Shown in pieces: positions 3,801 to 55,389 of a DNA stretch of 64,000 nucleotides. The translations under genes were made by a program, and so were the position numbers. The stretch lies in assembly GCF_988242995.1 (NCBI RefSeq), contig NZ_OZ547043.1, one strand, 5' to 3'. Position 1 is the stretch's first letter. The number at the start of each line of letters is the position of its first letter. The notes under the pieces are model-generated. The model ran no database searches. It was given only the letters and a program-made list of their open reading frames with translations, and was not told where the DNA came from.

Positions 3801-3927
3801 CCACTGGGGCTTTGAGGGTGTCGCGCGTAAAGGTTATATCGCTAACACTCTGACGCCGAATGTCGGTGATGCAAACTCGCAAACGCCGGAATATAAAGCG
3901 TTCTTAGTCAACATCGAGAAGGCGTAA
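880..3927 (+). CDS. fdnG: Formate dehydrogenase-N alpha subunit (selenocysteine-containing molybdoenzyme); in-frame UGA at 1465-1467 read as Sec
   Basis: Track ORFs 880-1467 and 1516-3927 are in the same frame, separated only by TGA at 1465-1467. N-terminus has a twin-arginine motif (SRRQFFK). Total length 3048 nt equals 1015 codons plus stop, matching FdnG. Confidence 0.93.
1465..1510 (+). promoter_or_regulatory. Selenocysteine UGA codon plus putative downstream SECIS hairpin
   Basis: TGA at 1465-1467 followed by sequence with hairpin potential (agcaag-tc-cttgct core; ggacc/ggtc outer arms). Bacterial SECIS elements sit directly 3' of the UGA. Confidence 0.7.
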
Positions 3928-3939
3928 GGGGGCGAACAG

Positions 3940-4824
3940 ATGGCTATGGAAACGCAGGACATTATCAAAAGGTCCGCAACTAACTCCATCACGCCGCCTT
4001 CTCAGGTGCGTGATTACAAAGCAGAAGTCGCGAAACTTATCGACGTTTCCACCTGTATCGGCTGTAAAGCCTGTCAGGTGGCGTGTTCAGAGTGGAACGA
4101 CATCCGTGATGAAGTGGGGCACTGCGTCGGGGTTTACGATAACCCCGCCGATCTGAGCGCCAAGTCCTGGACGGTGATGCGCTTTAGCGAAACCGAACAG
4201 AACGGCAAGCTGGAGTGGCTGATCCGTAAAGACGGCTGTATGCACTGTGAAGATCCGGGCTGCCTGAAGGCGTGCCCGTCTGCTGGTGCAATCATTCAGT
4301 ACGCTAACGGGATTGTCGATTTCCAGTCGGAAAACTGCATCGGCTGTGGTTACTGCATTGCCGGGTGTCCGTTTAATATTCCGCGCCTCAACAAAGAGGA
4401 TAACCGGGTATATAAATGCACGCTCTGCGTCGATCGCGTCAGCGTCGGCCAGGAACCGGCTTGTGTGAAAACCTGTCCGACCGGGGCTATCCACTTCGGC
4501 ACCAAGAAGGAGATGCTGGAGCTGGCGGAACAGCGCGTGGCGAAACTGAAAGCGCGTGGTTACGAACATGCTGGCGTCTACAACCCGGAAGGGGTCGGTG
4601 GTACGCACGTTATGTACGTGCTGCATCACGCCGATCAGCCGGAGCTGTATCACGGTCTGCCGAAAGATCCGAAGATCGATACCTCGGTAAGCCTGTGGAA
4701 AGGCGCGTTGAAACCGCTGGCAGCGGCTGGCTTTATTGCCACTTTTGCCGGGTTGATTTTCCATTACATCGGTATTGGCCCGAATAAGGAAGTGGACGAT
4801 GACGAGGAGGATCATCATGAGTAA
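3940..4824 (+). CDS. fdnH: Formate dehydrogenase-N beta subunit (4Fe-4S ferredoxin-type, C-terminal membrane anchor)
   Basis: 294-aa ORF with several CxxCxxCxxxCP ferredoxin motifs; lies 12 nt after fdnG. Confidence 0.93.
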
Positions 4825-8889: not shown

Positions 8890-9600
8890 TAAATATCCTC
8901 CGGCATAGCCGGAGGTTTTTCAAATGCGCCTGTAAGGCTCTGTTACCAGCCGCGCCCTAACAGGCGCACACGATCTGACATTTGCATCCAACTTCGTTAC
9001 TTACGGCCCGTAAACGGGCTGCCCGGATAGGGAATCGATAACTGCTCTCCCATTTTATCCTCTTCAAGCTGGTGCTTTATGTAGTCCTGTATCTTCGCCG
9101 TGTTCTTACCCACCGTATCGACATAGTACCCTCGGCACCAGAACTCCCTGTTTCTGTATTTGAATTTCAAATCCCCAAACTGCTCGTAAAGCATCAGACT
9201 GCTTTTCCCTTTCAGATATCCCATAAAGCCGGATACGCTCATTTTGGGTGGGATTTCCACAAGCATATGGATATGATCTGCGCAGCACTCTGCTTCCAGA
9301 ATCCGTACGCTTTTCCACTCACACAGCTTTCTCAAAATACTGCCTATCGCCCTACGCTTCTCTCCGTAAAACGCCAGTCTTCGGTATTTCGGCGCAAAAA
9401 CTATGTGATATTTACAGTTCCAGCGGGTGTGCGCTAAGCTCTTTTCGTCCCCCATTGGGACCCCCTTTTGATTTCTTGTTTGACACTTGCAGTTGCCAGA
9501 CCGCAAGGTGTTTTAACAAATCAAAAGGGGTTTTAATAACTGGCTCAAAGCTGAAAGCTTTCCGGAACCCCCAGCCTAGCTGGGGGTTTTCTGTGCACAA
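8890..9600 (-). mobile_element. IS200-type insertion sequence (IS200/IS605 family), about 0.7 kb; boundaries approximate
   Basis: Contains a 152-aa Y1 transposase gene flanked by subterminal hairpins at both ends (8897-8915 and 9566-9588), plus a long inverted repeat at about 9461-9529 over the tnpA start region (assumed to occlude the RBS). Not present at this position in K-12 as I recall. Confidence 0.7.
8997..9455 (-). CDS. tnpA: IS200 transposase TnpA (HUH / Y1 single-strand transposase)
   Basis: Track ORF 8997-9506; internal start MGDEKSLAHTRWNCKYHIVFAPKYRR...HIHMLVEIPP (HuH motif)...Y, 152 aa, typical IS200 TnpA. Confidence 0.85.
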   Translation of the reverse strand: MGDEKSLAHTRWNCKYHIVFAPKYRRLAFYGEKRRAIGSILRKLCEWKSVRILEAECCADHIHMLVEIPPKMSVSGFMGYLKGKSSLMLYEQFGDLKFKYRNREFWCRGYYVDTVGKNTAKIQDYIKHQLEEDKMGEQLSIPYPGSPFTGRK

Positions 9601-9604
9601 CAAA

Positions 9605-9630
9605 AACACCATTGCGCAGGCAATGGTGTT
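9605..9630 (-). terminator. Rho-independent terminator of sra
   Basis: Inverted repeat aacaccattgc / gcaatggtgtt; on the minus strand it is followed by tttttgttg, immediately 3' of the sra stop. Confidence 0.65.
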
Positions 9631-9659
9631 TAATCGTCATTGAGGACTGATGGTTATGA

Positions 9660-9797
9660 ATTACTTTTCAGAGGGGCGTTTTCTGCCGGTTGGGTTATTT
9701 ACCACGCTGGATTTGTCACCTTCGGTAACTATTTTGCGCTGGTTAGAAATTTTATGGTCCAGTCCAAGAATATGACGTGCCTGACGGTTCGATTTCA
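9660..9797 (-). CDS. sra: Stationary-phase-induced ribosome-associated protein (30S subunit protein S22), 45 aa
   Basis: Manual translation of the minus strand gives [45 protein letters not shown]; absent from the track (under the size cutoff). Confidence 0.85.
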
Positions 9798-9899
9798 TTT
9801 TAACTCCTCAATCCTGTTGCTAGTTTTAAGGACAACATCGCCGTAGCGAAGAAACACGTGCTAAACCCCTAAATTAGGTTGCCGATCAAGCATAGCACC

Positions 9900-10115
9900 T
9901 TAAAGCGTAGGGTGCTGGCCACTGACCACATAATTGATCGTTTGCTGGTAGATATCACTGAGGATGTCGTTATCAGAAGCTTCCACCCATTTGGTCAGCT
10001 CCATGAGAATGTCATCTTCAGTGACAACACCGTGCTCTGCCCGAAGGCCTTGCTCAATGGCATTAACCAGAGCGGGTTCTGCTGTTGAATTTTCTGCCTG
10101 ATAATAAGTAAACAT
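9900..10115 (-). CDS. bdm: Biofilm-dependent modulation protein, 71 aa
   Basis: Track ORF 9900-10178 with internal start MFTYYQAENSTAEPALVNAIEQGL...; located between sra and osmC as in E. coli. Confidence 0.85.
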   Translation of the reverse strand: MFTYYQAENSTAEPALVNAIEQGLRAEHGVVTEDDILMELTKWVEASDNDILSDIYQQTINYVVSGQHPTL

Positions 10116-47468: not shown

Positions 47469-47723
47469 TTAAAGCTGACCGACAGACTTTCTTAACCCGG
47501 TAATATCTCTCTTAGGTGACTCTCCAAACATCCGCGAATATTCCCGACTGAAATGGGATAAGCTTTCGTAACCGACAGCATAGGCTGCAGTGGTGACATC
47601 GTAATGTTCATTCAGCATCAGTCGCCTGGCTTCATTGAGGCGTAGCCATTTCTGATACCGGAGTGGACTCATTCCCGCAAGCTGTCTGAAGTGTTGATGG
47701 AAAGTGGGGGTGTTCATTTGCAC
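47469..47723 (-). pseudogene. yneL: Remnant of an AraC-family regulator (C-terminal HTH only)
   Basis: 84-aa ORF is only the AraC C-terminal HTH domain (LRYQKWLRLNEARRLM...GYESLSHFSREYSRMFGESP); no N-terminal domain ORF upstream. Confidence 0.65.
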
Positions 47724-48003
47724 GCGGTTTGCCAGCCTGACTCTTCAACGCAGGGAAGATGCGGCAAACGGCAAACCTGCATACCAGCCAGCCTATATCC
47801 GGTATGCACAGGCCAATCATGAAAGAGGAGAGGCTTTATGTTCTGGAACCCTGAAGTAATAACGACGACTGGAAAATCGCTTCGCATCACTCAAATTCCA
47901 TTTAACTATTCTGGGTTTGAGGGATATACATAATTGACTTCAGCACCAGAAACAGCATAACAAACTGTTTTAAATGGATATTAATCAAATGGCGATTCAA
48001 ACT

Positions 48004-48038
48004 CACAGTTATGAACTCAGTTTTGGTTCATAACTGTG
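48004..48038. repeat. Perfect 13-bp inverted repeat with 9-bp spacer
   Basis: cacagttatgaac-tcagttttg-gttcataactgtg; a related palindromic 10-mer gttcatgaac lies about 40 nt further on. Confidence 0.8.
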
Positions 48039-48137
48039 TTAAACGCTGTCCATAAATCACTCGATGTTACGCTTATTGGTTCATGAACTGTTCGTTCTAA
48101 TGTTGTGATGTGCGTCAGGTTTTAGTGTTCGGTAATG

Positions 48138-48941
48138 TTACCTTTTACTCGATGATCGATTGTTTAGCACCTCTCCCACAACCGGAGCAGCGGTAAATGC
48201 GTTTGGCCAGCCAGCATAGAAGGCGGCCTGGGTAACGATCTCACCAGCTTCCTCAACAGAAAGTCCATTATCCATTGCTCTGTTAAGGTGATAGCCAATC
48301 TGCGCGCTCTGTCCGGATGCGATTAAGGCGCTGACCGTAATCAGGCTTCTGTCGCGGGGTTTCAGCGCGGGTCTTTGCCAGAGATCCAGGAAGAGTGGAT
48401 CAGCAGTGAATTTAACCAGGCCTGGAGATATTGGGCCAACATTTTTTTCCACTGTTTCTGAACGCTGCTTTTCTGCTTCCTGATTGAGAGGAAGCAGGTC
48501 CGGAGAAGCGTCAGGAAGTGCATCTGCCGTGACGCCACGAGTTTCAAATACTGCTTTGGTCACGCTGACGGCTGACATTGCATTTGGCCAACCTGAGTAG
48601 AACGCCAGATGGGTAATGATTTCTGATAATTCCGCTGGCGTCACGCCGCTATCGAGAGCGACGTCAATATAGTGCTTAAGCTGGGCAGGCTGGTTGCGGG
48701 CAATCAGCATGGCGACGGTCACCACACTACGATCCCTCGGTGAGAGGGCGTCGCGTGTCCACAGATCTTCAGTAATAGCTTCGCGACCAAAGCGCGCGAG
48801 AGCCGGTGAGACGGAACGAATATCAGCTTCCGAAATCGCTGACGGTTCTATTTTCATCATAGCTTTACCTCTTGTTTCCTCAGCATTGGCAAAATCAGAA
48901 ATAACAAGCGACATAGCCGCTGCTGCAAGTACGCTTTTCAT
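48138..48941 (-). CDS. Tandem carboxymuconolactone decarboxylase-like (AhpD-like) protein with predicted signal peptide
   Basis: 267 aa; two repeated modules each with a ...ITHLAFYSGWPNA... type segment (CMD/AhpD fold); N-terminus MKSVLAAAAMSLVISDFANA looks like a Sec signal. Confidence 0.7.
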   Translation of the reverse strand: MKSVLAAAAMSLVISDFANAEETRGKAMMKIEPSAISEADIRSVSPALARFGREAITEDLWTRDALSPRDRSVVTVAMLIARNQPAQLKHYIDVALDSGVTPAELSEIITHLAFYSGWPNAMSAVSVTKAVFETRGVTADALPDASPDLLPLNQEAEKQRSETVEKNVGPISPGLVKFTADPLFLDLWQRPALKPRDRSLITVSALIASGQSAQIGYHLNRAMDNGLSVEEAGEIVTQAAFYAGWPNAFTAAPVVGEVLNNRSSSKR

Positions 48942-48956
48942 GTTAATCCTTACTGG

Positions 48957-49682
48957 TCAACGTTGCTGCTCCTGTTTGATTCCGCCTTTGTTACGAAGAA
49001 ATACCGGTTTTACCGGGATTGCGTCCTTCCTGGCGCTCATATGCGCCGTTTGCCTGAGGTAATCCAGGAAGTGCGGCGTTTGTCGGTGCAGTTGATAATC
49101 CTCCTCACTGGCGTAAATCTCATAGAAATACCAGCGTTTTGGAGTCTCTGAATCTGTACCGGCATACATGGCTAACACGCCTTTCTCTACTTTGAGCGAC
49201 TCGACCATTTCAGGAAGGACGATGTTTCTAAATTCGCTCTGAAATTCAGGCTTTACTTCGACGATCACCAGATTATTGATAGTTCGTTCATTCGGTATGA
49301 TGTGTTTGTCGCCCAGAAACTGTGGCTCCAGGGTAATTTTCTTCTTCCTGTCAATAATGTCAGGTGCACGAGCAGCGAATGCTTTGTATGGGGCGGCATT
49401 GAGATGTTTGCGATAAGCACGCTCATTTTCATAGAGTTCGAACATGAATGCCTTATGTGGATTGTCGCTGTGGTGCAGGGCGTACATCGCCAGCGTACCT
49501 ACTTCATGATCAACCGAAGCGGAAATCGTCTGTCTGGCTACGTCTGCAAAGTCGTTGTCCCGATCGGGTCTGATGCCGAGCTCGAAGATATTCATCTCCG
49601 GCTTATTCGGCGCGTCCGGTTTTGTTGCAAAGACAGGGCTGCTTATTAGCATGCAAATTAAAAGCATAAAAGTCTTTTTCAC
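48957..49682 (-). CDS. Tandem ABM-type (antibiotic biosynthesis monooxygenase-like) protein with predicted signal peptide
   Basis: 241 aa; two halves each with LAMYA...FYEIY / FELYENE... features of the ferredoxin-like ABM fold; N-terminus MKKTFMLLICMLISSPVFA. Confidence 0.6.
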   Translation of the reverse strand: MKKTFMLLICMLISSPVFATKPDAPNKPEMNIFELGIRPDRDNDFADVARQTISASVDHEVGTLAMYALHHSDNPHKAFMFELYENERAYRKHLNAAPYKAFAARAPDIIDRKKKITLEPQFLGDKHIIPNERTINNLVIVEVKPEFQSEFRNIVLPEMVESLKVEKGVLAMYAGTDSETPKRWYFYEIYASEEDYQLHRQTPHFLDYLRQTAHMSARKDAIPVKPVFLRNKGGIKQEQQR

Positions 49683-49797: not shown

Positions 49798-50817
49798 CTA
49801 TCGCGTCCATACCTGCTTAACATCTTTCGTTTGCGGCGTATTTTGCGCCATGATCCCCGTCAGAACATGCGGCTGGTAGGTTTCTTCCAGAAACTGAATT
49901 TCCTCCGGACTTAGTTGAAGATTTACTGCGTTTACCGCGCCATCGACATGAGCTTTTTTTGTAGCCCCTACGACAGGTGATGTGACTTTTGTCAGCAGCC
50001 AAGCGAGAGATATTTCCGTCATTGACACCAGATGGCGTTCGGCCAGTTCGGCTACACGCTCAATAATGCTGCGATCCTGTTCAGCCGTGCTGTCATATTT
50101 TCCACGCGCATAGTCATCCTCTGTGGCTCGCCGCGTATAGCCTTCTTTACGAGAGAGGCGGCCGCTGGCCAGCGCGCTATAGGGGGTCATTGCGATATTA
50201 TCCTCAGTGCACAGGCCGAAGAGCTCCCGTTCATCTTCGCGCATAATTAGATTGTAGTGGCTCTGTACGGAAACAAAGGGCGTCAGCCCTTCGCGTTCAG
50301 CAAGGGCGTTCGCCTTCGCCAGCTGCCAGGCATAGCAGTTTGAAATACCAACAGCTCGTACTTTGCCAGCAGTAACAGCGGTATGTAACGCTTCAAGCAC
50401 GTCGATAATGGGCGTGTTGTAATCCCAGATGTGGTAGATGTAGAGGTCGATATAGTCCATCCCCAGATTCTTCAGGCTCTGGTCAAGGGATTGAGCGATT
50501 GCCTCTTTTCCGCTGATCCCTCCGGCAATTTGTGCGGGGGTTCGCGGCAGAAACTTGGTGGCCAGGACGATATCATCGCGTTTCGCCATCTCCCGTAATG
50601 CCCGGCCAACGTATCGCTCACTGGAGCCATTCTGGTAGGCTATAGCGGTATCGTAAAAGTTGATGCCCTTTTCAAGGCCATAGCGAATGATGTCGCGGCT
50701 TGCTGTTTCGTCCAGCGTCCAGCTATGCTGACCCGTCGACGGATCGCCAAACCCCATGCATCCCATGCAGATGCGGGAAACAAGTAAGTCACTTTTACCG
50801 AGCCGGGTATACTGCAT
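49798..50817 (-). CDS. Aldo/keto reductase
   Basis: 339 aa; AKR motifs (GINFYDTAIAY, catalytic Tyr/Lys context). Confidence 0.8.
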   Translation of the reverse strand: MQYTRLGKSDLLVSRICMGCMGFGDPSTGQHSWTLDETASRDIIRYGLEKGINFYDTAIAYQNGSSERYVGRALREMAKRDDIVLATKFLPRTPAQIAGGISGKEAIAQSLDQSLKNLGMDYIDLYIYHIWDYNTPIIDVLEALHTAVTAGKVRAVGISNCYAWQLAKANALAEREGLTPFVSVQSHYNLIMREDERELFGLCTEDNIAMTPYSALASGRLSRKEGYTRRATEDDYARGKYDSTAEQDRSIIERVAELAERHLVSMTEISLAWLLTKVTSPVVGATKKAHVDGAVNAVNLQLSPEEIQFLEETYQPHVLTGIMAQNTPQTKDVKQVWTR

Positions 50818-50819
50818 TG

Positions 50820-51392
50820 TTATTCTCCCTCTGGATTATTCACGACGGAATTGAGCAGTTCGACAAGCCTTGAAGCGTGTTCCCGGGCAAGCGTTTTTTG
50901 CTGCGCGATTTTGTCGGCATCCCGGTCGGCATAGCTGATACCGCAGGTATAAACCGGCGCCAGCAGCTCAAGATTGCACAGCCTTGCCGTGGTTTCGAAC
51001 GGAATAAGATACTCTTCAATGGTATTGCCAAAGAAACTGTCGACGGTATAGAGCTCCTCTGGCGCTCCCGTTGTAAAGGAGAGGATCAGCTTTTTACCGC
51101 CCAGTTTCGCCGTTGAGCCATGCGCGAAGCCGTGAACAAAGACCTCGTCCAGCCATTTTTTCATTAATCCTGGCAGCCCATACCAGGAAAAAGGGAACTG
51201 CCAGACAATCACATCGGCCCTGAGCAGGCTTTTCTGCTCCGCCGCGATGTTGAATTTGCCATCCGGATAGAGCCTGTCCAGACGACGAATCTCAACATCG
51301 GGAAGGGCGGTCTCCACTTCATCAAGAATAGTGGCATTGGCGACGGAATGGGTAAGCTCAGGATGACCTGAAATAACAAGGATATTTTTCAT
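50820..51392 (-). CDS. Flavodoxin-like NAD(P)H:quinone oxidoreductase family protein
   Basis: 190 aa; MKNILVISGHPE... N-terminus and WQFPFSWYGLPGLMKKWLDEV typical of NAD(P)H dehydrogenase (quinone) family; 3-nt gap to the downstream AKR gene. Confidence 0.75.
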   Translation of the reverse strand: MKNILVISGHPELTHSVANATILDEVETALPDVEIRRLDRLYPDGKFNIAAEQKSLLRADVIVWQFPFSWYGLPGLMKKWLDEVFVHGFAHGSTAKLGGKKLILSFTTGAPEELYTVDSFFGNTIEEYLIPFETTARLCNLELLAPVYTCGISYADRDADKIAQQKTLAREHASRLVELLNSVVNNPEGE

Positions 51393-51542: not shown

Positions 51543-52220
51543 CTAAACCGTGATGCCCAGTAAACGTTCTGCATTGCGAAACGCGATGGCCTCTTTTTCA
51601 GCCTTGTTGACGGGCAGACTGTCTATAAAGGTTTTTACACCGTCCAGGGGTCTGATAGGGATAACCGACGGAGAACAGGATCCTTTCAGCACCCATTAAC
51701 GCGTAGATAAACTGGAAGTGCGGCAGTGTTAGCATATGACGGGGTAACGTAAACGTGTTCCTGGAAGGTTCTCGTTAGCGTGCGTGACAGACCCGTTGCA
51801 GCCAGTGCTAGGCTGTCATCAAGACGCTGGAGCCAGAAGGGTAACATCTCCCCCCAGTGGCCACTGATTACCTGCAGGTTGGGATATTTATCAAATGCGC
51901 CCGATAACATCAGCCGCAACAAATGGATCCCCGCTTCGTGATGCCAGCCCCAGGCAAACATAGAAAGCCTGGCGTTGACCTCTGCGCTGAAGCCCGTGAA
52001 GTAGGCCTGCTGTACGCTTTTAAGCGGTAACCCGGGATGAAGATAGAGTGGCACATTCAGTTTATTAAAGCGGGAAAGCAGGGAGTCGGTCAGGATTATG
52101 ACCATCAGCGACGGTTTTCCCCCTGTCGCCAAGGAAAGGTGCCTGCTCAAGCGCAACAGGCATACACGCGCGCCCTAACTCGCTGTCGAGATAATTTTCT
52201 TCGAGGCAAATGATTTTCAT
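51543..52220 (-). pseudogene. Frameshifted amidohydrolase-2 (TIM-barrel metal-dependent hydrolase) gene
   Basis: Coding potential is split over three frames: MKIICLEENYLDSELG... (from ATG at 52220), a 156-aa middle ORF (51686-52156) containing ISGHWGEMLPFW, and a C-terminal piece ...AEKEAIAFRNAERLLGITV* ending at 51543. Confidence 0.55.
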
Positions 52221-52322: not shown

Positions 52323-53270
52323 TTACACCATCGGTTTTTCCCAGGCGCCTCGTGTATCCACTCTGGTCTCTGCGGCGAGTTGTTCCAGCAGGATGATTTC
52401 CTCATCGCGTAACTGGATGTCTGAAGCGCAGGCGGCGTCCAGAACGTGATGGACTTTAGTCGCACCAACGAGGGGAAGGGTACCTTTCACAATAGCCCAT
52501 GCGATGGATATCTGTGCCACGCTGGCATTCCTTTCGGCTCCCATTTTTTTCATGGCGGCGGTTAGTCTTTCTATCTGCGGCAGTACGGCGTTATAACTTT
52601 CGGCCCGGCCACTCCCGGCAGGCATGGGATGATTTGAATCATAACGACCACTGAGCGCGCCTTGCTCCAGGACCATGTAAGCAAAGAACGTGATGTTATT
52701 TTGTCGGCAATAATCAAGGATCCCGGCCTCTTCAGAAGCGCGATAGAGCAGGCTGTAGTGATTTTGTACTGCACTGAGGGAATAACCGGAAGCGTTAAGG
52801 ATTTCATTGGCGCGTCTGATTTGTGCCAGATTGTGGTTGGAAACACCTACGCGTTTTACCTTACCGCTTTGTAAAAGTGGGATCAGTCCTGGCGTCCATT
52901 TTTCGACGTCGAGGGGATTATGGATCCAGTAGATATCAATCGCGTCCACGCCCAGGCGCCCAAGGCTGGCCTCAAGCATATCGCTGACAGGCTGCGCAGA
53001 CTGCTTGTCCGCAATCTGCGGCGTGAATTTGGTGGATAAAATTATGTTCTCGCGGGGAAACTGACGGACTAATGCTCCCAGCGCAGTCTCGGAACTCCCC
53101 ATACCATATACTGCTGCGGTATCCCAGAGATTGAGGCCCTTACTCATGGCCGCAGTGAACACTTCTGCCATCTGAGTATCAGAAAGATGATTACCAAAGA
53201 CGGTGTCGCCGCCGGCAAAGCCTGTGCCCCAGGACCATGTACCTAGTGCGACTGGAGGTAGTGTTTTCAT
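52323..53270 (-). CDS. Aldo/keto reductase
   Basis: 315 aa; AKR motifs (LWDTAAVYG, IDIYWIHNP). Confidence 0.8.
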   Translation of the reverse strand: MKTLPPVALGTWSWGTGFAGGDTVFGNHLSDTQMAEVFTAAMSKGLNLWDTAAVYGMGSSETALGALVRQFPRENIILSTKFTPQIADKQSAQPVSDMLEASLGRLGVDAIDIYWIHNPLDVEKWTPGLIPLLQSGKVKRVGVSNHNLAQIRRANEILNASGYSLSAVQNHYSLLYRASEEAGILDYCRQNNITFFAYMVLEQGALSGRYDSNHPMPAGSGRAESYNAVLPQIERLTAAMKKMGAERNASVAQISIAWAIVKGTLPLVGATKVHHVLDAACASDIQLRDEEIILLEQLAAETRVDTRGAWEKPMV

Positions 53271-53343: not shown

Positions 53344-54033
53344 TTAAGCTGTCCGGCGGAGTGCATTTAACAGCGCCACACCAACCCCATGTGCTGAAGC
53401 GGGATTCTGCCCCGTGATAAGGCGATCGTCGGTAACCACGTTTTCAGACCAGTTTGGAGCTTCATGATAAAGCGCACCATGCTCGCGAAGTGCGGTTTCA
53501 AGCAGGAAGGGAACCACATCTGTTGTGTGAACTTCTTCCTCTTCCTTGTTGGTAAAGGCCGCCACATTTTTCCCTTTTATCAGGTATTCGCCGCTACTGA
53601 GTTTTGCGTCAACCAATGCCGCAGGCCCGTGGCAGACGGCTGAGACAATCCCATCACTTTCATACACTTCGCGGATAATACGCTGGGCATCCTGATTATC
53701 ACGGAAATCCCACATGGTCCCATGACCACCTGCAAAGAAAACTGCGCTGTAATCGGCACCTTTCAGCTCGGATAACGCAGGTGTTGTTGCCAGGCGCTGC
53801 TGAAAATCGGTTTCGTTCCAGTACCAGGCGTTAACAGGGTCGCTGAGGTCAAATCCATCCACCGGTGGCTGCCCCCCGCGAATACTGGCTATTGTTGTTT
53901 TTATTCCGGCATCTTCCAGTACTTTCAGCGGATGAGTCAGCTCGGCCAGGAAAAAACCGGTTGGTACACCGGATGCGCCTTTAATCGGATGGCTGGAAAC
54001 GACACATAGCACTGGTTTATATGCAGGTTTCAT
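53344..54033 (-). CDS. DJ-1/PfpI (class I glutamine amidotransferase-like) family protein
   Basis: Roughly 229 aa; nucleophile-elbow-like AVCHGP; start uncertain (track ORF extends to 54045). Confidence 0.75.
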   Translation of the reverse strand: MKPAYKPVLCVVSSHPIKGASGVPTGFFLAELTHPLKVLEDAGIKTTIASIRGGQPPVDGFDLSDPVNAWYWNETDFQQRLATTPALSELKGADYSAVFFAGGHGTMWDFRDNQDAQRIIREVYESDGIVSAVCHGPAALVDAKLSSGEYLIKGKNVAAFTNKEEEEVHTTDVVPFLLETALREHGALYHEAPNWSENVVTDDRLITGQNPASAHGVGVALLNALRRTA

Positions 54034-54041
54034 ATCGGTCC

Positions 54042-54353
54042 TCACTCTTTATTTTTAAATTCATCGGCGAAGAGATTTTCCCAGTTAATAAAGGAGCCAA
54101 GCGGTATACACTCGAAGCTTAGTAAGCCTGCTTTTGCCAACGGGAATTCGGCCATAACGTTCATCGCTTCATCGACAGAGTCACATTCAAGAAAAATAGC
54201 GACGCCAGGTCTGTCCTGACGGAAGTAGATGTCGCGGATGAAGCCTGATTTATACAATCCCCAGGCGTGCAGCGCTTCAGCGTTGAGGTGCGGAGCATAT
54301 TTCTCCAGCGATGCTCCAGGGGCAGGGATATCCAGACATAAAATTCGCATCAT
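54042..54353 (-). CDS. Small alpha+beta-barrel protein, possibly muconolactone-isomerase-like
   Basis: 103-aa ORF first in the operon; weak pattern similarity to muconolactone isomerase and other dimeric alpha/beta-barrel proteins; assignment tentative. Confidence 0.45.
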   Translation of the reverse strand: MMRILCLDIPAPGASLEKYAPHLNAEALHAWGLYKSGFIRDIYFRQDRPGVAIFLECDSVDEAMNVMAEFPLAKAGLLSFECIPLGSFINWENLFADEFKNKE

Positions 54354-54489: not shown

Positions 54490-55389
54490 ATGAATAACGC
54501 TCTTTATAACCAGATTCGCATCTTCCAGAGCATTGCGCGGGAGGGCAATATTTCGGCAGCCGCAAGGAAACTGGAAATTACGCCTCCCTCCGTCAGCAAT
54601 GCACTAAAGCTGCTGGAAGAGTATATCGGCCATCCGCTTTTTGTGCGTACGACCCGCCGTATAGAGCTGACGGAAACCGGTCAATTATTGCTGGAACAGA
54701 CCGCTGCGGCGGTGGAGTCGCTGGAAAACTCACTTGAAAGCATTCGCGACCAGCATCAGGAGCCCTCTGGGATGGTGCGAATTACGCTCTCGCGTTTTGC
54801 CTACCTGTTAATTCTTAAGCCTGCGATGGCAGAATTCTGTCAGCAATATCCGGGTATACAGTTAGAAATTTCGGTCTACGACGGTACCGTGAATATCATC
54901 AAAGAGCGTTTTGATCTGGGGATCCGTTTTGGCGATATTCTTGAGGGAGGGGTGGTGGCCCGACCGTTAATGAAACCGTTTCGTGAAGGATTATATGCAT
55001 CCTCAGCGTATCTCTCCCGACATGGAACGCCTGAAGTGCCGGCAGATCTCTGTCATCACCAGCTGATTGGTTACCGTTTTATCACCAACAACCGCATCCT
55101 TCCGCTGCTCCTGAACGATCGCGGTGAGCAGTTGACCGTTGAGATGCCGGGGCAGTTAATCAGCAACGATATTGACGTTATGGCAGACGGGATCCGTAAC
55201 GGGCTGGGAATTGGGCGCTTGTTTGAGCCTGTCTGGCAGTTACAGCCGGACAGGGAGCGCTTTATTCCGGTGATGGAGAGCTACTGGAAAACCTACCCGC
55301 CAGTGTATCTCTATTACCCCAAAAACGCGGGTAAAACGAAAAGAGTGAAGGCCCTGATTGATTTTCTGATATCCACTACGGGGCGATAA
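54490..55389 (+). CDS. LysR-family transcriptional regulator
   Basis: 299 aa; N-terminal HTH (ISAAARKLEITPPSVSNALKLLEE) and LysR substrate-binding domain; divergent from the redox operon. Confidence 0.85.
   Translation: MNNALYNQIRIFQSIAREGNISAAARKLEITPPSVSNALKLLEEYIGHPLFVRTTRRIELTETGQLLLEQTAAAVESLENSLESIRDQHQEPSGMVRITLSRFAYLLILKPAMAEFCQQYPGIQLEISVYDGTVNIIKERFDLGIRFGDILEGGVVARPLMKPFREGLYASSAYLSRHGTPEVPADLCHHQLIGYRFITNNRILPLLLNDRGEQLTVEMPGQLISNDIDVMADGIRNGLGIGRLFEPVWQLQPDRERFIPVMESYWKTYPPVYLYYPKNAGKTKRVKALIDFLISTTGR

Follow-up and report, generated by a model that had tools for sequence, protein, structure and literature searches.

Two tandem-domain CMD and ABM proteins with predicted Sec signal peptides at the end of an Escherichia coli accessory operon

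Enzymes with the CMD/AhpD fold (CMD, carboxymuconolactone decarboxylase) and with the ABM fold are treated as cytoplasmic, and their uncharacterised members are named by transfer. Two such proteins were analysed here. They are encoded side by side in a stretch of 64,000 nucleotides (nt) of an Escherichia coli chromosome, in the region of ydeP / ydeQRST-fimbrial / hipBA (RefSeq assembly GCF_988242995.1, contig NZ_OZ547043.1). This whole stretch is called the window, and coordinates refer to it unless a related locus (L followed by a number) is named. The tandem CMD protein is called CMDx2 throughout and the tandem ABM protein ABMx2. Both were already annotated as family members and close structures exist; what is new is their predicted export and the proposed split of their operon between two compartments.

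A described system of related families is MdaB-YgiN of E. coli K-12, a quinone redox cycle (cited in PMC3686733) made of a Flavodoxin_2 NADPH quinone reductase and a single-domain ABM quinol monooxygenase that needs no added cofactor. Both proteins of the cycle are cytoplasmic, YgiN being a homodimer of 104 amino acids (aa), whereas ABMx2 is a fused tandem with a predicted signal peptide. In many related loci, a KefF-like flavoprotein of the Flavodoxin_2 family likewise adjoins ABMx2. It is either the cytoplasmic Flav2 or a second paralogue, Flav2x, which bears a twin-arginine translocation (Tat) signal in relatives. The E. coli island holds only the cytoplasmic KefF-like flavoprotein. The MdaB-YgiN cycle was reportedly first described by Adams and Jia in 2005.

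PcaC, the gamma-carboxymuconolactone decarboxylase of the beta-ketoadipate pathway (PDB 2af7), offers the best named domain-level similarity to CMDx2, and both CMD domains of CMDx2 match PcaC-type models. PcaC is cytoplasmic, single-domain and encoded with pcaBDGHIJ, whereas CMDx2 is a tandem protein with a predicted signal peptide. AhpD of Mycobacterium tuberculosis (1knc/1gu9) shares the superfamily fold with CMDx2 (Foldseek ranks 11-13), with poor scores (expectation value, E, about 0.3; root-mean-square deviation, rmsd, above 10 A), and the AhpC and Lpd/SucB partners that AhpD needs are absent at the CMDx2 locus. Two tandem ABM proteins like ABMx2, 5f9p (anthrone-oxidase-like) and PenE (9kdp), carry out cofactor-free oxygenation of polycyclic aromatics. 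They were matched to ABMx2 by Foldseek with E of 1e-11 to 1e-10, at 11-13% identity and a template modelling (TM) score of about 0.55, and are cytoplasmic polyketide-tailoring enzymes from actinomycetes or fungi.

The other comparisons are with structural-genomics entries. The Sinorhizobium protein 4g9q, named '4-carboxymuconolactone decarboxylase', has a tandem CMD fold like that of CMDx2. Its native protein (P0391/P0392) is also signal-bearing, with the N-terminus MKRLFAPLIGVMMMTASNAGA/QQPN (slashes mark predicted cleavage sites), and its relatives in Pseudomonas, Caulobacter and Sphingomonas begin likewise. It belongs to a clade different from that of CMDx2, the alpha-/gamma-proteobacterial 'QQPN' type, with no reported function or localisation. 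A relative in Pseudomonas (L016, the one context examined) lies in an operon of LysR, aldo-keto reductase (AKR) and CMDx2 genes without ABMx2. The 4g9q chain of 269 residues corresponds to the 259-aa precursor (P0391) with 10 extra N-terminal residues (a deduced offset), and was apparently produced with its signal peptide; 238 of the 269 residues are ordered and the first ~30 are not. The entries 3f44 (Lactobacillus acidophilus) and 3mcs (Fusobacterium nucleatum FN1347), both named 'putative monooxygenase', are single-chain double ferredoxin-like barrels, as is ABMx2. Unlike ABMx2, their chains begin about 5 residues before the first strand and have no signal segment, and no signal was found in the Lactobacillaceae homologues of ABMx2 in the genome scan. 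A literature search on CMD, AhpD-like or ABM proteins combined with periplasm, signal peptide or secretome gave nothing on the export of these subfamilies or on this operon, and no proteomic or fusion data; it yielded only CxxC-type CMD proteins, fungal secretome lists and unrelated ABM proteins.

From their sequences, CMDx2 and ABMx2 are both very probably exported and cleaved, after ANA20 and VFA19, respectively. Sec-type signal peptides with these sites (ANA/EE and VFA/TK) had been proposed in a preliminary description of the locus, and the N-termini are as described there. CMDx2 begins with MKSVLAAAAMSLVISDFANA/EETRGK, in which the n-, h- and c-regions are MK, SVLAAAAMSLVIS and DFANA/E. 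ABMx2 begins with MKKTFMLLICMLISSPVFA/TKPD, in which they are (M)KK, TFMLLICMLISS and PVFA/T. Both have the tripartite pattern of Sec substrates of signal peptidase I, i.e. a positive n-region, an h-region of 7-15 residues, small residues at -3 and -1 and no Pro at +1. A home-made signal rule was then used, in which a protein passes if it has a net positive n-region, an uncharged window of 8 residues with a mean Kyte-Doolittle hydropathy ≥2.3, and, at position 15-32, a site with small residues at -3/-1. The rule was benchmarked on 46 annotated proteins from the same region of a syntenic RefSeq chromosome. It was passed by 9 of 11 proteins known to be exported (fimbrial subunits, chaperone, YddB, PqqL, DigH and DdpA) and by 2 polytopic proteins among 8 membrane proteins, but by none of the 27 cytoplasmic ones. 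CMDx2 (hydropathy 2.38) and ABMx2 (3.34) pass, and no further transmembrane segment was found in either.

The residues at -3 and -1 are small across genera. Within Enterobacterales, column identity is 0.68 in the signal and 0.85 in the mature part of CMDx2, and 0.48 and 0.59 in those of ABMx2; charge, hydrophobicity and the small-x-small site are kept while the signal sequence drifts. Sites found among orthologues are ANA, YAN, ALA, AFA and VQA, and VFA, VLA, AFA and VIA. In the AlphaFold2 (AF2) model of CMDx2, residues 1-30 have a predicted local distance difference test (pLDDT) score <50 and form a coil outside the fold. In that of ABMx2, the first 28 residues are a low-confidence coil and the fold runs from residue 29.

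The signals behave as an add-on module, because three situations were met in the family. Enterobacter soli (L015) has a genuine signal-less CMDx2 paralogue which starts, with its own Shine-Dalgarno (SD) sequence, exactly at the conserved Met found after the signal in long CMDx2 proteins. In L013, CMDx2 is interrupted by a GAG to TAG nonsense mutation exactly at the first mature codon (about 3921-4000; the called CMD gene is 4001-4723). Tandem ABMs with and without a signal coexist. The 240-aa 'short' product called in L013 from Met27/28 (cluster P0136, 46 members) is a gene-caller rescue of the long gene. The L013 gene is either a pseudogene or the source of a cytoplasmic isoform started at the internal Met, which has AGAGG in front of it. 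The export route would be Sec with signal peptidase I, because there is neither a twin-arginine motif nor a conserved lipobox. Tat routing of the two E. coli proteins was rejected as the RR of the twin-arginine motif, S/T-R-R-x-F-L-K, is absent from their first 20 residues. Lipoprotein routing was rejected as well: CMDx2 has no Cys, and LLIC in ABMx2 misfits the lipobox [LVI][ASTVI][GAS]C (Ile at -1). The Cys of the ABMx2 h-region varies among orthologues (G, W, F, Y).

A census of signals was made in 76 related loci with one genome per species. A query of 12 sequences was used for the genome scan, and tblastn with identity thresholds served to map the partner genes. The loci are not phylogenetically independent, and one procedure was applied to every mapped gene. 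A signal-like extension was found in 49 of 60 ABMx2 homologues of Proteobacteria versus 0 of 11 from monoderm Firmicutes/Actinobacteria (p = 2.8e-7); one ABMx2 signal was found in the diderm Veillonella. The extension stops just ahead of the first strand, e.g. '...LSAQA/APVFNIFEL'. Signals were also found in CMDx2 (12/16), DUF1330 (7/11) and Flav2x (10/10, of which 6 with RRxFx), and in the amidohydrolase Amido2 (10 of 15 in Proteobacteria, 9 of them Tat, and 0 of 9 in monoderms). In eight control families (AKRa, AKRb, DJ-1, Flav2, other Flav2, LysR, YCII and hyp103) the count was 2 of 163 (p about 1e-46), and the cytoplasmic KefF-like Flav2 had a signal in none of 37 homologues. The strict rule reproduces this picture. 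When tandem ABM proteins were taken at large, at least 32 of 92 full-length representatives at 50% identity passed the strict rule, and several more signals are obvious by eye. Export had been considered unusual for these families. This holds for CMD and ABM proteins at large but not for the tandem subfamilies of Proteobacteria, given the ABMx2 counts and the signal-bearing 4g9q protein, and these subfamilies are probably periplasmic in this phylum.

The signals of the partner genes are of two types. Twin-arginine signals of Amido2 (ERRDLIK, SRRRIFL, NRRQFL and others) were found in L013 (141-1316), L011 (2683-3849), L012 (3338-4495), L028, L043-L049, L054, L065 and L081, and the bearers include Rodentibacter, Actinobacillus and Serratia inhibens; the Amido2 orthologues of Pantoea, Rahnella and Xanthomonas have no signal. 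We know of no described periplasmic hydroxy-aromatic-acid decarboxylase. Flav2x, the second KefF-like Flavodoxin_2 paralogue, is encoded just upstream of ABMx2 (L011 3886-4488; L021 about 9380-9978; L035, L037, L043, L045 and L065) and has Tat signals such as DRRTFVKG, DRRKLLQS and TRREFIQA. In several Enterobacterales its RR has degenerated into HR, YR or RK with the hydrophobic segment still present; RR is kept in Rahnella and Yersinia artesiana. DUF1330 proteins of the exported 3' block have Sec-type signals (L009 5939-6307; L019, L021, L023, L028, L045, L057 and L065), and one of the three DUF1330 copies of Testudinibacter is signal-less. Metal or flavin families (Amido2, Flav2x) have thus Tat signals, and families without a known cofactor (DUF1330, ABMx2, CMDx2) have Sec signals; for CMDx2 and ABMx2, we know of no cofactor in either family. 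Cofactor-holding proteins are expected to use Tat and cofactor-free ones Sec. The match with this expectation gives internal support for functional signals.

In almost every related locus, the exported gene is preceded by an AKR gene. The fullest form was found in Rahnella rivi, where a divergent LysR gene is followed by hyp103, DJ1, AKRb, Amido2, Flav2 and AKRa, and then by DUF1330, Flav2x, ABMx2 and CMDx2. The two genes studied here had been described as a pair. Of 21 Enterobacterales loci, 13 have them side by side, and a distant signal-bearing CMD-like gene adjoins ABMx2 in Stenotrophomonas, Lysobacteraceae, Acinetobacter and Eikenella. However, operons of Klebsiella, Dickeya and Pseudomonas end with a signal-bearing CMDx2 and have no ABMx2, and Pasteurellaceae, Neisseriaceae and others have a signal-bearing ABMx2 without this CMDx2. 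Because each is common without the other, they are not an obligate pair but partly linked, optional modules of one system. In one metagenomic gene call (P0438, 381 aa, JGI metagenome 3300078620), a signal peptide, CMDx2 and a single ABM domain are joined. A separate cupin gene lies in its neighbourhood, together with a xanthine-dehydrogenase-like Fer2 / FAD_binding_5 set. Two further proteins combine a cupin with CMDx2, P0498 (417 aa) with a signal peptide and P0480 (320 aa).

The internal duplication noted in the preliminary description is real in both proteins. Two Pfam CMD domains (PF02627) were found in CMDx2 (residues 54-129, E 1.3e-16; residues 176-255, E 2.9e-17) and two ABM domains (PF03992) in ABMx2 (residues 32-104, E 6e-11; residues 141-209, E 3e-13). 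The halves are 44% identical in CMDx2 (E 4e-32) and 26% in ABMx2 (E 6e-14). CMDx2 is 50% identical to 4g9q over residues 25-262 (E 2.8e-73; Foldseek TM 0.89), and 2q0t and 2af7 were further Foldseek matches. The AF2 model of ABMx2 (pLDDT 93) has the ferredoxin-like beta-alpha-beta fold and matches 3f44 (TM 0.96) and 3mcs (TM 0.92) with rmsd of 1.3-1.8 A and 26-27% identity. Neither translated mature protein contains any Cys, and no conserved Cys was found in an alignment of 31 CMDx2 orthologues. CMDx2 keeps the PcaC-type motif RDRS...H...E...Y.G.P and has no CxxC.

Named functions were then considered. For CMDx2, PcaC (TIGR02425) was rejected at 112.6 bits, summed over two domains, versus a cut-off of 155.7, and no pca genes (pcaB, pcaD, pcaGH, pcaIJ) were found in the window region or in related loci. 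An AhpD-type alkylhydroperoxidase, which has a catalytic CxxC with a His/Glu proton relay, was rejected on the CxxC test. For ABMx2, a YgiN-type identity was rejected: no YgiN model was among the NCBIfam matches, and no YgiN or quinol monooxygenase was among the 5 PDB matches with E ≤0.01, in a PDB copy not checked for the presence of YgiN; the best matches overall are uncharacterised tandem ABMs and LsrG. LsrG itself (phospho-AI-2 isomerase, NF007791) scored 58.3 bits versus a cut-off of 135, and no lsr genes are nearby. The names '4-carboxymuconolactone decarboxylase' and 'quinol monooxygenase' were thus both left without support from the membership tests, and the RefSeq name of ABMx2, 'putative quinol monooxygenase', is only a family-level guess. 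CMDx2 is called 'carboxymuconolactone decarboxylase family protein' in the syntenic RefSeq genome.

In the window, the genes of the island are co-directional in the order hyp103, DJ-1, AKRb, amidohydrolase pseudogene, KefF-like Flavodoxin_2, AKRa, ABMx2 and CMDx2, with LysR divergent (Table 1). The ATG of CMDx2 is located 15 nt past the TGA of ABMx2, and the two genes are co-oriented. The NCBIfam AKR matches of AKRa are under the equivalog cut-offs, and no significant Pfam or NCBIfam match was found for hyp103. The amidohydrolase pseudogene is annotated as three RefSeq fragments; it lacks residues about 93-210 and has at least two frameshifts compared with the intact orthologues of 344-391 aa, and no signal was found. 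Because the gap between AKRa and ABMx2 is only 115 nt, the E. coli island has no DUF1330 or Flav2x gene. It is a reduced version, in which ABMx2 and CMDx2 are the only exported members kept. The island was found in 462 of 5426 complete E. coli genomes (≥80% of a two-gene query; about 8.5%), in 8 places on plasmids. Its importance in E. coli is modest, as it is accessory and partly decayed. The hairpin downstream of CMDx2 (-25 kcal/mol, z = -4.9, a stability that none of 200 shuffles reached) is a candidate end of the transcription unit, as judged from its sequence. It was not picked up by a consensus terminator scan, and across the operon consensus promoter and terminator scanning gave nothing above shuffled expectation.

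Table 1. Coordinates of CMDx2, ABMx2 and the neighbouring features in the window.
Feature	Coordinates	Strand	Remarks
CMDx2 coding sequence	48138..48941	minus	267 aa precursor, ~247 aa mature; open reading frame (ORF), two Pfam CMD domains
CMDx2 signal peptide, predicted Sec, codons 1-20	48882..48941	minus	MKSVLAAAAMSLVISDFANA, predicted cleavage after ANA, mature EETRGK
CMDx2 Shine-Dalgarno AAGGA	48947..48951	minus	5 nt upstream of ATG; GAGGA in L007, L009
CMD domain 1, residues 54-129	48555..48782	minus	Pfam; invariant columns RDRS...H...E..ITHLAFYSGWPNA
CMD domain 2, residues 176-255	48177..48416	minus	Pfam; 44% identity to domain 1
ABMx2 coding sequence	48957..49682	minus	241 aa from GTG, ~222 aa mature; ORF, two Pfam ABM domains
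ABMx2 signal peptide, predicted Sec, codons 1-19	49626..49682	minus	(M)KKTFMLLICMLISSPVFA, predicted cleavage after VFA, mature TKPDAPNK
ABMx2 start codon GTG	49680-49682	minus	
ABM domain 1, residues 32-104	49371..49589	minus	Pfam
ABM domain 2, residues 141-209	49056..49262	minus	Pfam; 26% identity to domain 1
Stem-loop, candidate transcription-unit end	47995..48044	minus	about 95-145 nt downstream of CMDx2 stop
AKRa, aldo-keto reductase, 339 aa, cytoplasmic	49798..50817	minus	directly upstream of ABMx2; no signal
KefF-like Flavodoxin_2 NAD(P)H oxidoreductase, 190 aa, cytoplasmic	50820..51392	minus	NCBIfam KefF 148 bits, cut-off 210
Amidohydro_2 pseudogene, LigW / dihydroxybenzoate-decarboxylase-like	about 51543..52219	minus	tblastn with intact L013 protein
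AKRb, second aldo-keto reductase, 315 aa, cytoplasmic	52323..53270	minus	ORF; no signal
DJ-1/PfpI-type protein, cytoplasmic	53344..54045	minus	ORF; no signal
hyp103, first operon gene, 102/103 aa	54042..54353	minus	first gene also in Klebsiella, Dickeya, Enterobacter, others
LysR-family regulator, presumed operon regulator	54490..55389	plus	divergent; divergent LysR kept in related loci

Overall, it is probable that CMDx2 and ABMx2 are exported, Sec-type, soluble periplasmic enzymes which end a LysR-controlled operon serving two compartments. Both would be translocated by Sec, released by signal peptidase I and work in soluble form in the periplasm. They would be the last two products of the operon, whose others are presumably cytoplasmic and belong mainly to NAD(P)H-dependent types. 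In the wider family, a cytoplasmic 5' block and an exported 3' block would be combined in one operon, and this two-compartment organisation is reasonably likely to be a functional unit. The chemistry proposed for the cluster is rather doubtful. It might handle a membrane-permeant hydroxy-aromatic or quinone-type compound, ABMx2 acting as an O2-dependent oxygenase or tautomerase with no added cofactor, CMDx2 as a PcaC-like decarboxylase or isomerase and not as a thiol peroxidase, and the cytoplasmic reductases dealing with the compound that enters the cell. This proposal was made because of the LigW-like amidohydrolase, the KefF-like quinone reductase, the AKRs, DJ-1 and the parallel with MdaB-YgiN. 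The intact amidohydrolase matches 5-carboxyvanillate (LigW), 2,3-dihydroxybenzoate, gamma-resorcylate and salicylate decarboxylases with E of 1e-47 to 1e-32.

A wider reading is possible, though tentative. The loci may form a widespread two-compartment system, with a cytoplasmic and a periplasmic block in one LysR-controlled operon and signals gained or lost gene by gene, tracking the presence of a periplasm. The cytoplasmic block would consist of the AKRs, the KefF-like flavoprotein, DJ-1 and YCII or hyp103. The periplasmic block would comprise up to five enzymes: a Tat LigW-like decarboxylase, a Tat KefF-like flavoprotein, a Sec DUF1330 protein, the tandem ABM and the tandem CMD. The exported flavoprotein and ABMx2 could then correspond, in the periplasm, to the MdaB-YgiN quinone cycle, and dietary or plant polyphenols and quinones would be detoxified or processed ahead of the cytoplasm. 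The hosts are plant-associated Enterobacterales and Xanthomonadaceae, and host-associated Pasteurellaceae and Neisseriaceae. This suggests a periplasmic defence or catabolism for phenolic or quinone compounds in gut-, oral- and plant-associated bacteria. A periplasmic site narrows the possible substrates and partners, as neither NAD(P)H nor thiol reductants are available there, and suits families without a known cofactor. The operon pattern gives a handle on families of unknown function (hyp103, YCII, DUF1330, tandem ABM and tandem CMD).

Several points weigh against the periplasmic two-compartment reading. For the signals, the h-region of CMDx2 is only moderately hydrophobic (2.38) with an Asp at -5, Lys at +2 of mature ABMx2 is mildly unfavourable for Sec export, and the strict rule is failed by some orthologues. 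The signal rules are home-made, and the relaxed rule takes the best among the candidate starts (controls were treated identically). The E. coli ABMx2 gene starts with GTG behind a weak SD, AAAAAGA, and RefSeq (WP_000909116; L001 10558-11253) begins the protein at Met11, which gives 231 aa. For the function, signal-less paralogues in the same operon type (L015) indicate that the chemistry can do without the periplasm. A periplasmic KefF-like flavoprotein would be without NAD(P)H, and the model gives no reductant. The closest structures (4g9q, 3f44, 3mcs) are uncharacterised structural-genomics entries. Finally, the E. coli island is partly decayed (amidohydrolase pseudogene; Flav2x and DUF1330 absent), and the pair may have little function here.

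This last point leads to the alternative that withstands scrutiny best, an evolutionary remnant. The island would be a decaying acquisition in E. coli, whose exported genes are intact but serve no pathway. The pseudogene, the DUF1330 and Flav2x genes missing compared with Rahnella and Pantoea, the presence of the island in a minority of E. coli genomes, its border with an AraC-type pseudogene and the relative with a nonsense codon in CMDx2 all fit with decay. However, in almost all of some 460 E. coli genomes neither ORF is disrupted and identity is 95-99%, and the minimal LysR, AKR, CMDx2 operons of Klebsiella and Pseudomonas are apparently complete, so that a reduced set can function. A remnant is unlikely; it would concern the present usefulness of the genes and does not conflict with export.

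A periplasmic thiol/redox couple, formed by an AhpD-like peroxidase (CMDx2) and a quinol monooxygenase (ABMx2), had been put forward in the preliminary description as a redox pair, and is quite improbable. CMD belongs to the AhpD fold family, ABMx2 bears its RefSeq name, the genes are adjacent, co-oriented and 15 nt apart, and in relatives an exported Flavodoxin_2 protein adjoins ABMx2 as MdaB adjoins YgiN. But the absence of Cys from both mature proteins excludes the CxxC thiol mechanism of AhpD, CMDx2 matches PcaC-type proteins best and AhpD at the fold level only, with poor scores, and ABMx2 has no YgiN structure match at E ≤0.01, its best curated match being LsrG at 58 bits versus 135. Moreover, each gene is widespread without the other, and the E. 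coli island has no exported flavoprotein.

Uncleaved signal anchors, by which the enzymes would be tethered to the periplasmic face of the inner membrane, are very improbable. The h-region of ABMx2 is very hydrophobic (3.34), and lipobox-like motifs in a few homologues (LNAC, LTAC; MSGC in CMDx2 of Yersinia artesiana) indicate that membrane attachment occurs in the family. However, a stable transmembrane helix would need a longer stretch than the 12-13 uncharged residues of the h-regions, and these regions are followed by helix-breaking Pro/Ser/Asp and the conserved small-x-small site; the Cys of the E. coli ABMx2 h-region lies outside a lipobox and is not conserved.

A better upstream start that would remove the hydrophobic N-termini had been raised in the preliminary description; no in-frame start exists upstream of either ORF, and the issue is the downstream start of ABMx2 in RefSeq. 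Starting at Met11 drops the n-region and half of the h-region; hydropathy falls to 1.75 and the signal rule is failed. The complete signal peptide is given only by the GTG start (49653-49682 are lost under the RefSeq start), and automated pipelines miss the signal because of this truncation. Other gene callers and databases give 236 aa (Met6) or 241 aa (GTG). The GTG and a purine-rich SD are kept in the L007 and L009 orthologues (AAAAGGA / GAAGGGA), and Met6 is not conserved, being Val in L009. The RefSeq start of ABMx2 is likely a systematic start-codon misannotation. In the 4g9q clade, entries of 245-251 aa start at a Met within the h-region and still hold '...TA.A/QQPN'.

That the true starts are internal (Met11 or Met30 of ABMx2, Met27/28 of CMDx2), both proteins being cytoplasmic and their hydrophobic N-termini untranslated, is extremely unlikely, for although many database entries begin at Met6, Met11 (231 aa, as in RefSeq) or Met30, 240-aa CMDx2 entries begin MMKIEPS, the E. 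coli GTG follows a weak SD, AGAGG is present upstream of CMDx2 Met27 and signal-less paralogues exist, the segments are open and property-conserved over dozens of genera with canonical AxA sites right before the fold, the ABMx2 GTG is conserved with its SD and Met6 is not, a good AAGGA precedes the first ATG of CMDx2, the 240-aa CMDx2 cluster examined (L013) arose from the long form by a nonsense mutation, the shorter entries of the 4g9q clade still contain the c-region, and the same treatment gave 2/163 in control families and 0/11 in monoderm ABMx2 homologues.

Met27/28 of CMDx2 (codons 21-27, 48861-48881) is conserved, is preceded by AGAGGT and corresponds to the start of the signal-less paralogues. 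From the sequence, it is conceivable that initiation at this site yields a second, cytoplasmic isoform. The AGAGG before Met27 is inseparable from the purine-rich coding constraint of E-E-K-R-G-E. At 48942-48959, the ABMx2 TGA and the CMDx2 ATG share a frame with five sense codons between them. Read-through of this TGA would yield a fusion with an internal signal peptide, which is probably inconsequential. Between the island and the fimbrial operon, an AraC-type helix-turn-helix gene without its N-terminus (47469-47723, minus strand) is a RefSeq pseudogene; an intact small AraC-type gene was found at the equivalent position in Dickeya (L005 9512-9871).

Other export signals were found in the related loci. 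In Yersinia artesiana (L024 15322-15963, minus strand), a CMDx2 paralogue with 58% identity has the lipoprotein-type signal MINQKLLVIVSILMMSGC/VSQ, and the lipoboxes LNAC or LTAC belong to distant tandem ABMs (P0277, P0337). In Stenotrophomonas and Lysobacteraceae (L067, L069, L071), distant DJ-1-like proteins with Sec-like signals are encoded near ABM or CMD genes. In Bacteroidales (L090, L091), the same holds for distant AKR-like proteins with the Tat-like signals NRRNFIKQ and DRRDFLKK. These cases hint that further members of the kit (DJ-1-like, AKR-like) can also be exported. In Pseudomonas orientalis (L016 6863-6982), a 39-aa ORF, MSETTSYDRSDGDEVSTDRRNFLIAGSGVLLAATSFAFS, is located between the AKR gene and the signal-bearing CMDx2. 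It resembles a free-standing Tat signal peptide, and may be what is left of an exported gene that was lost, or else a small subunit targeted to Tat.

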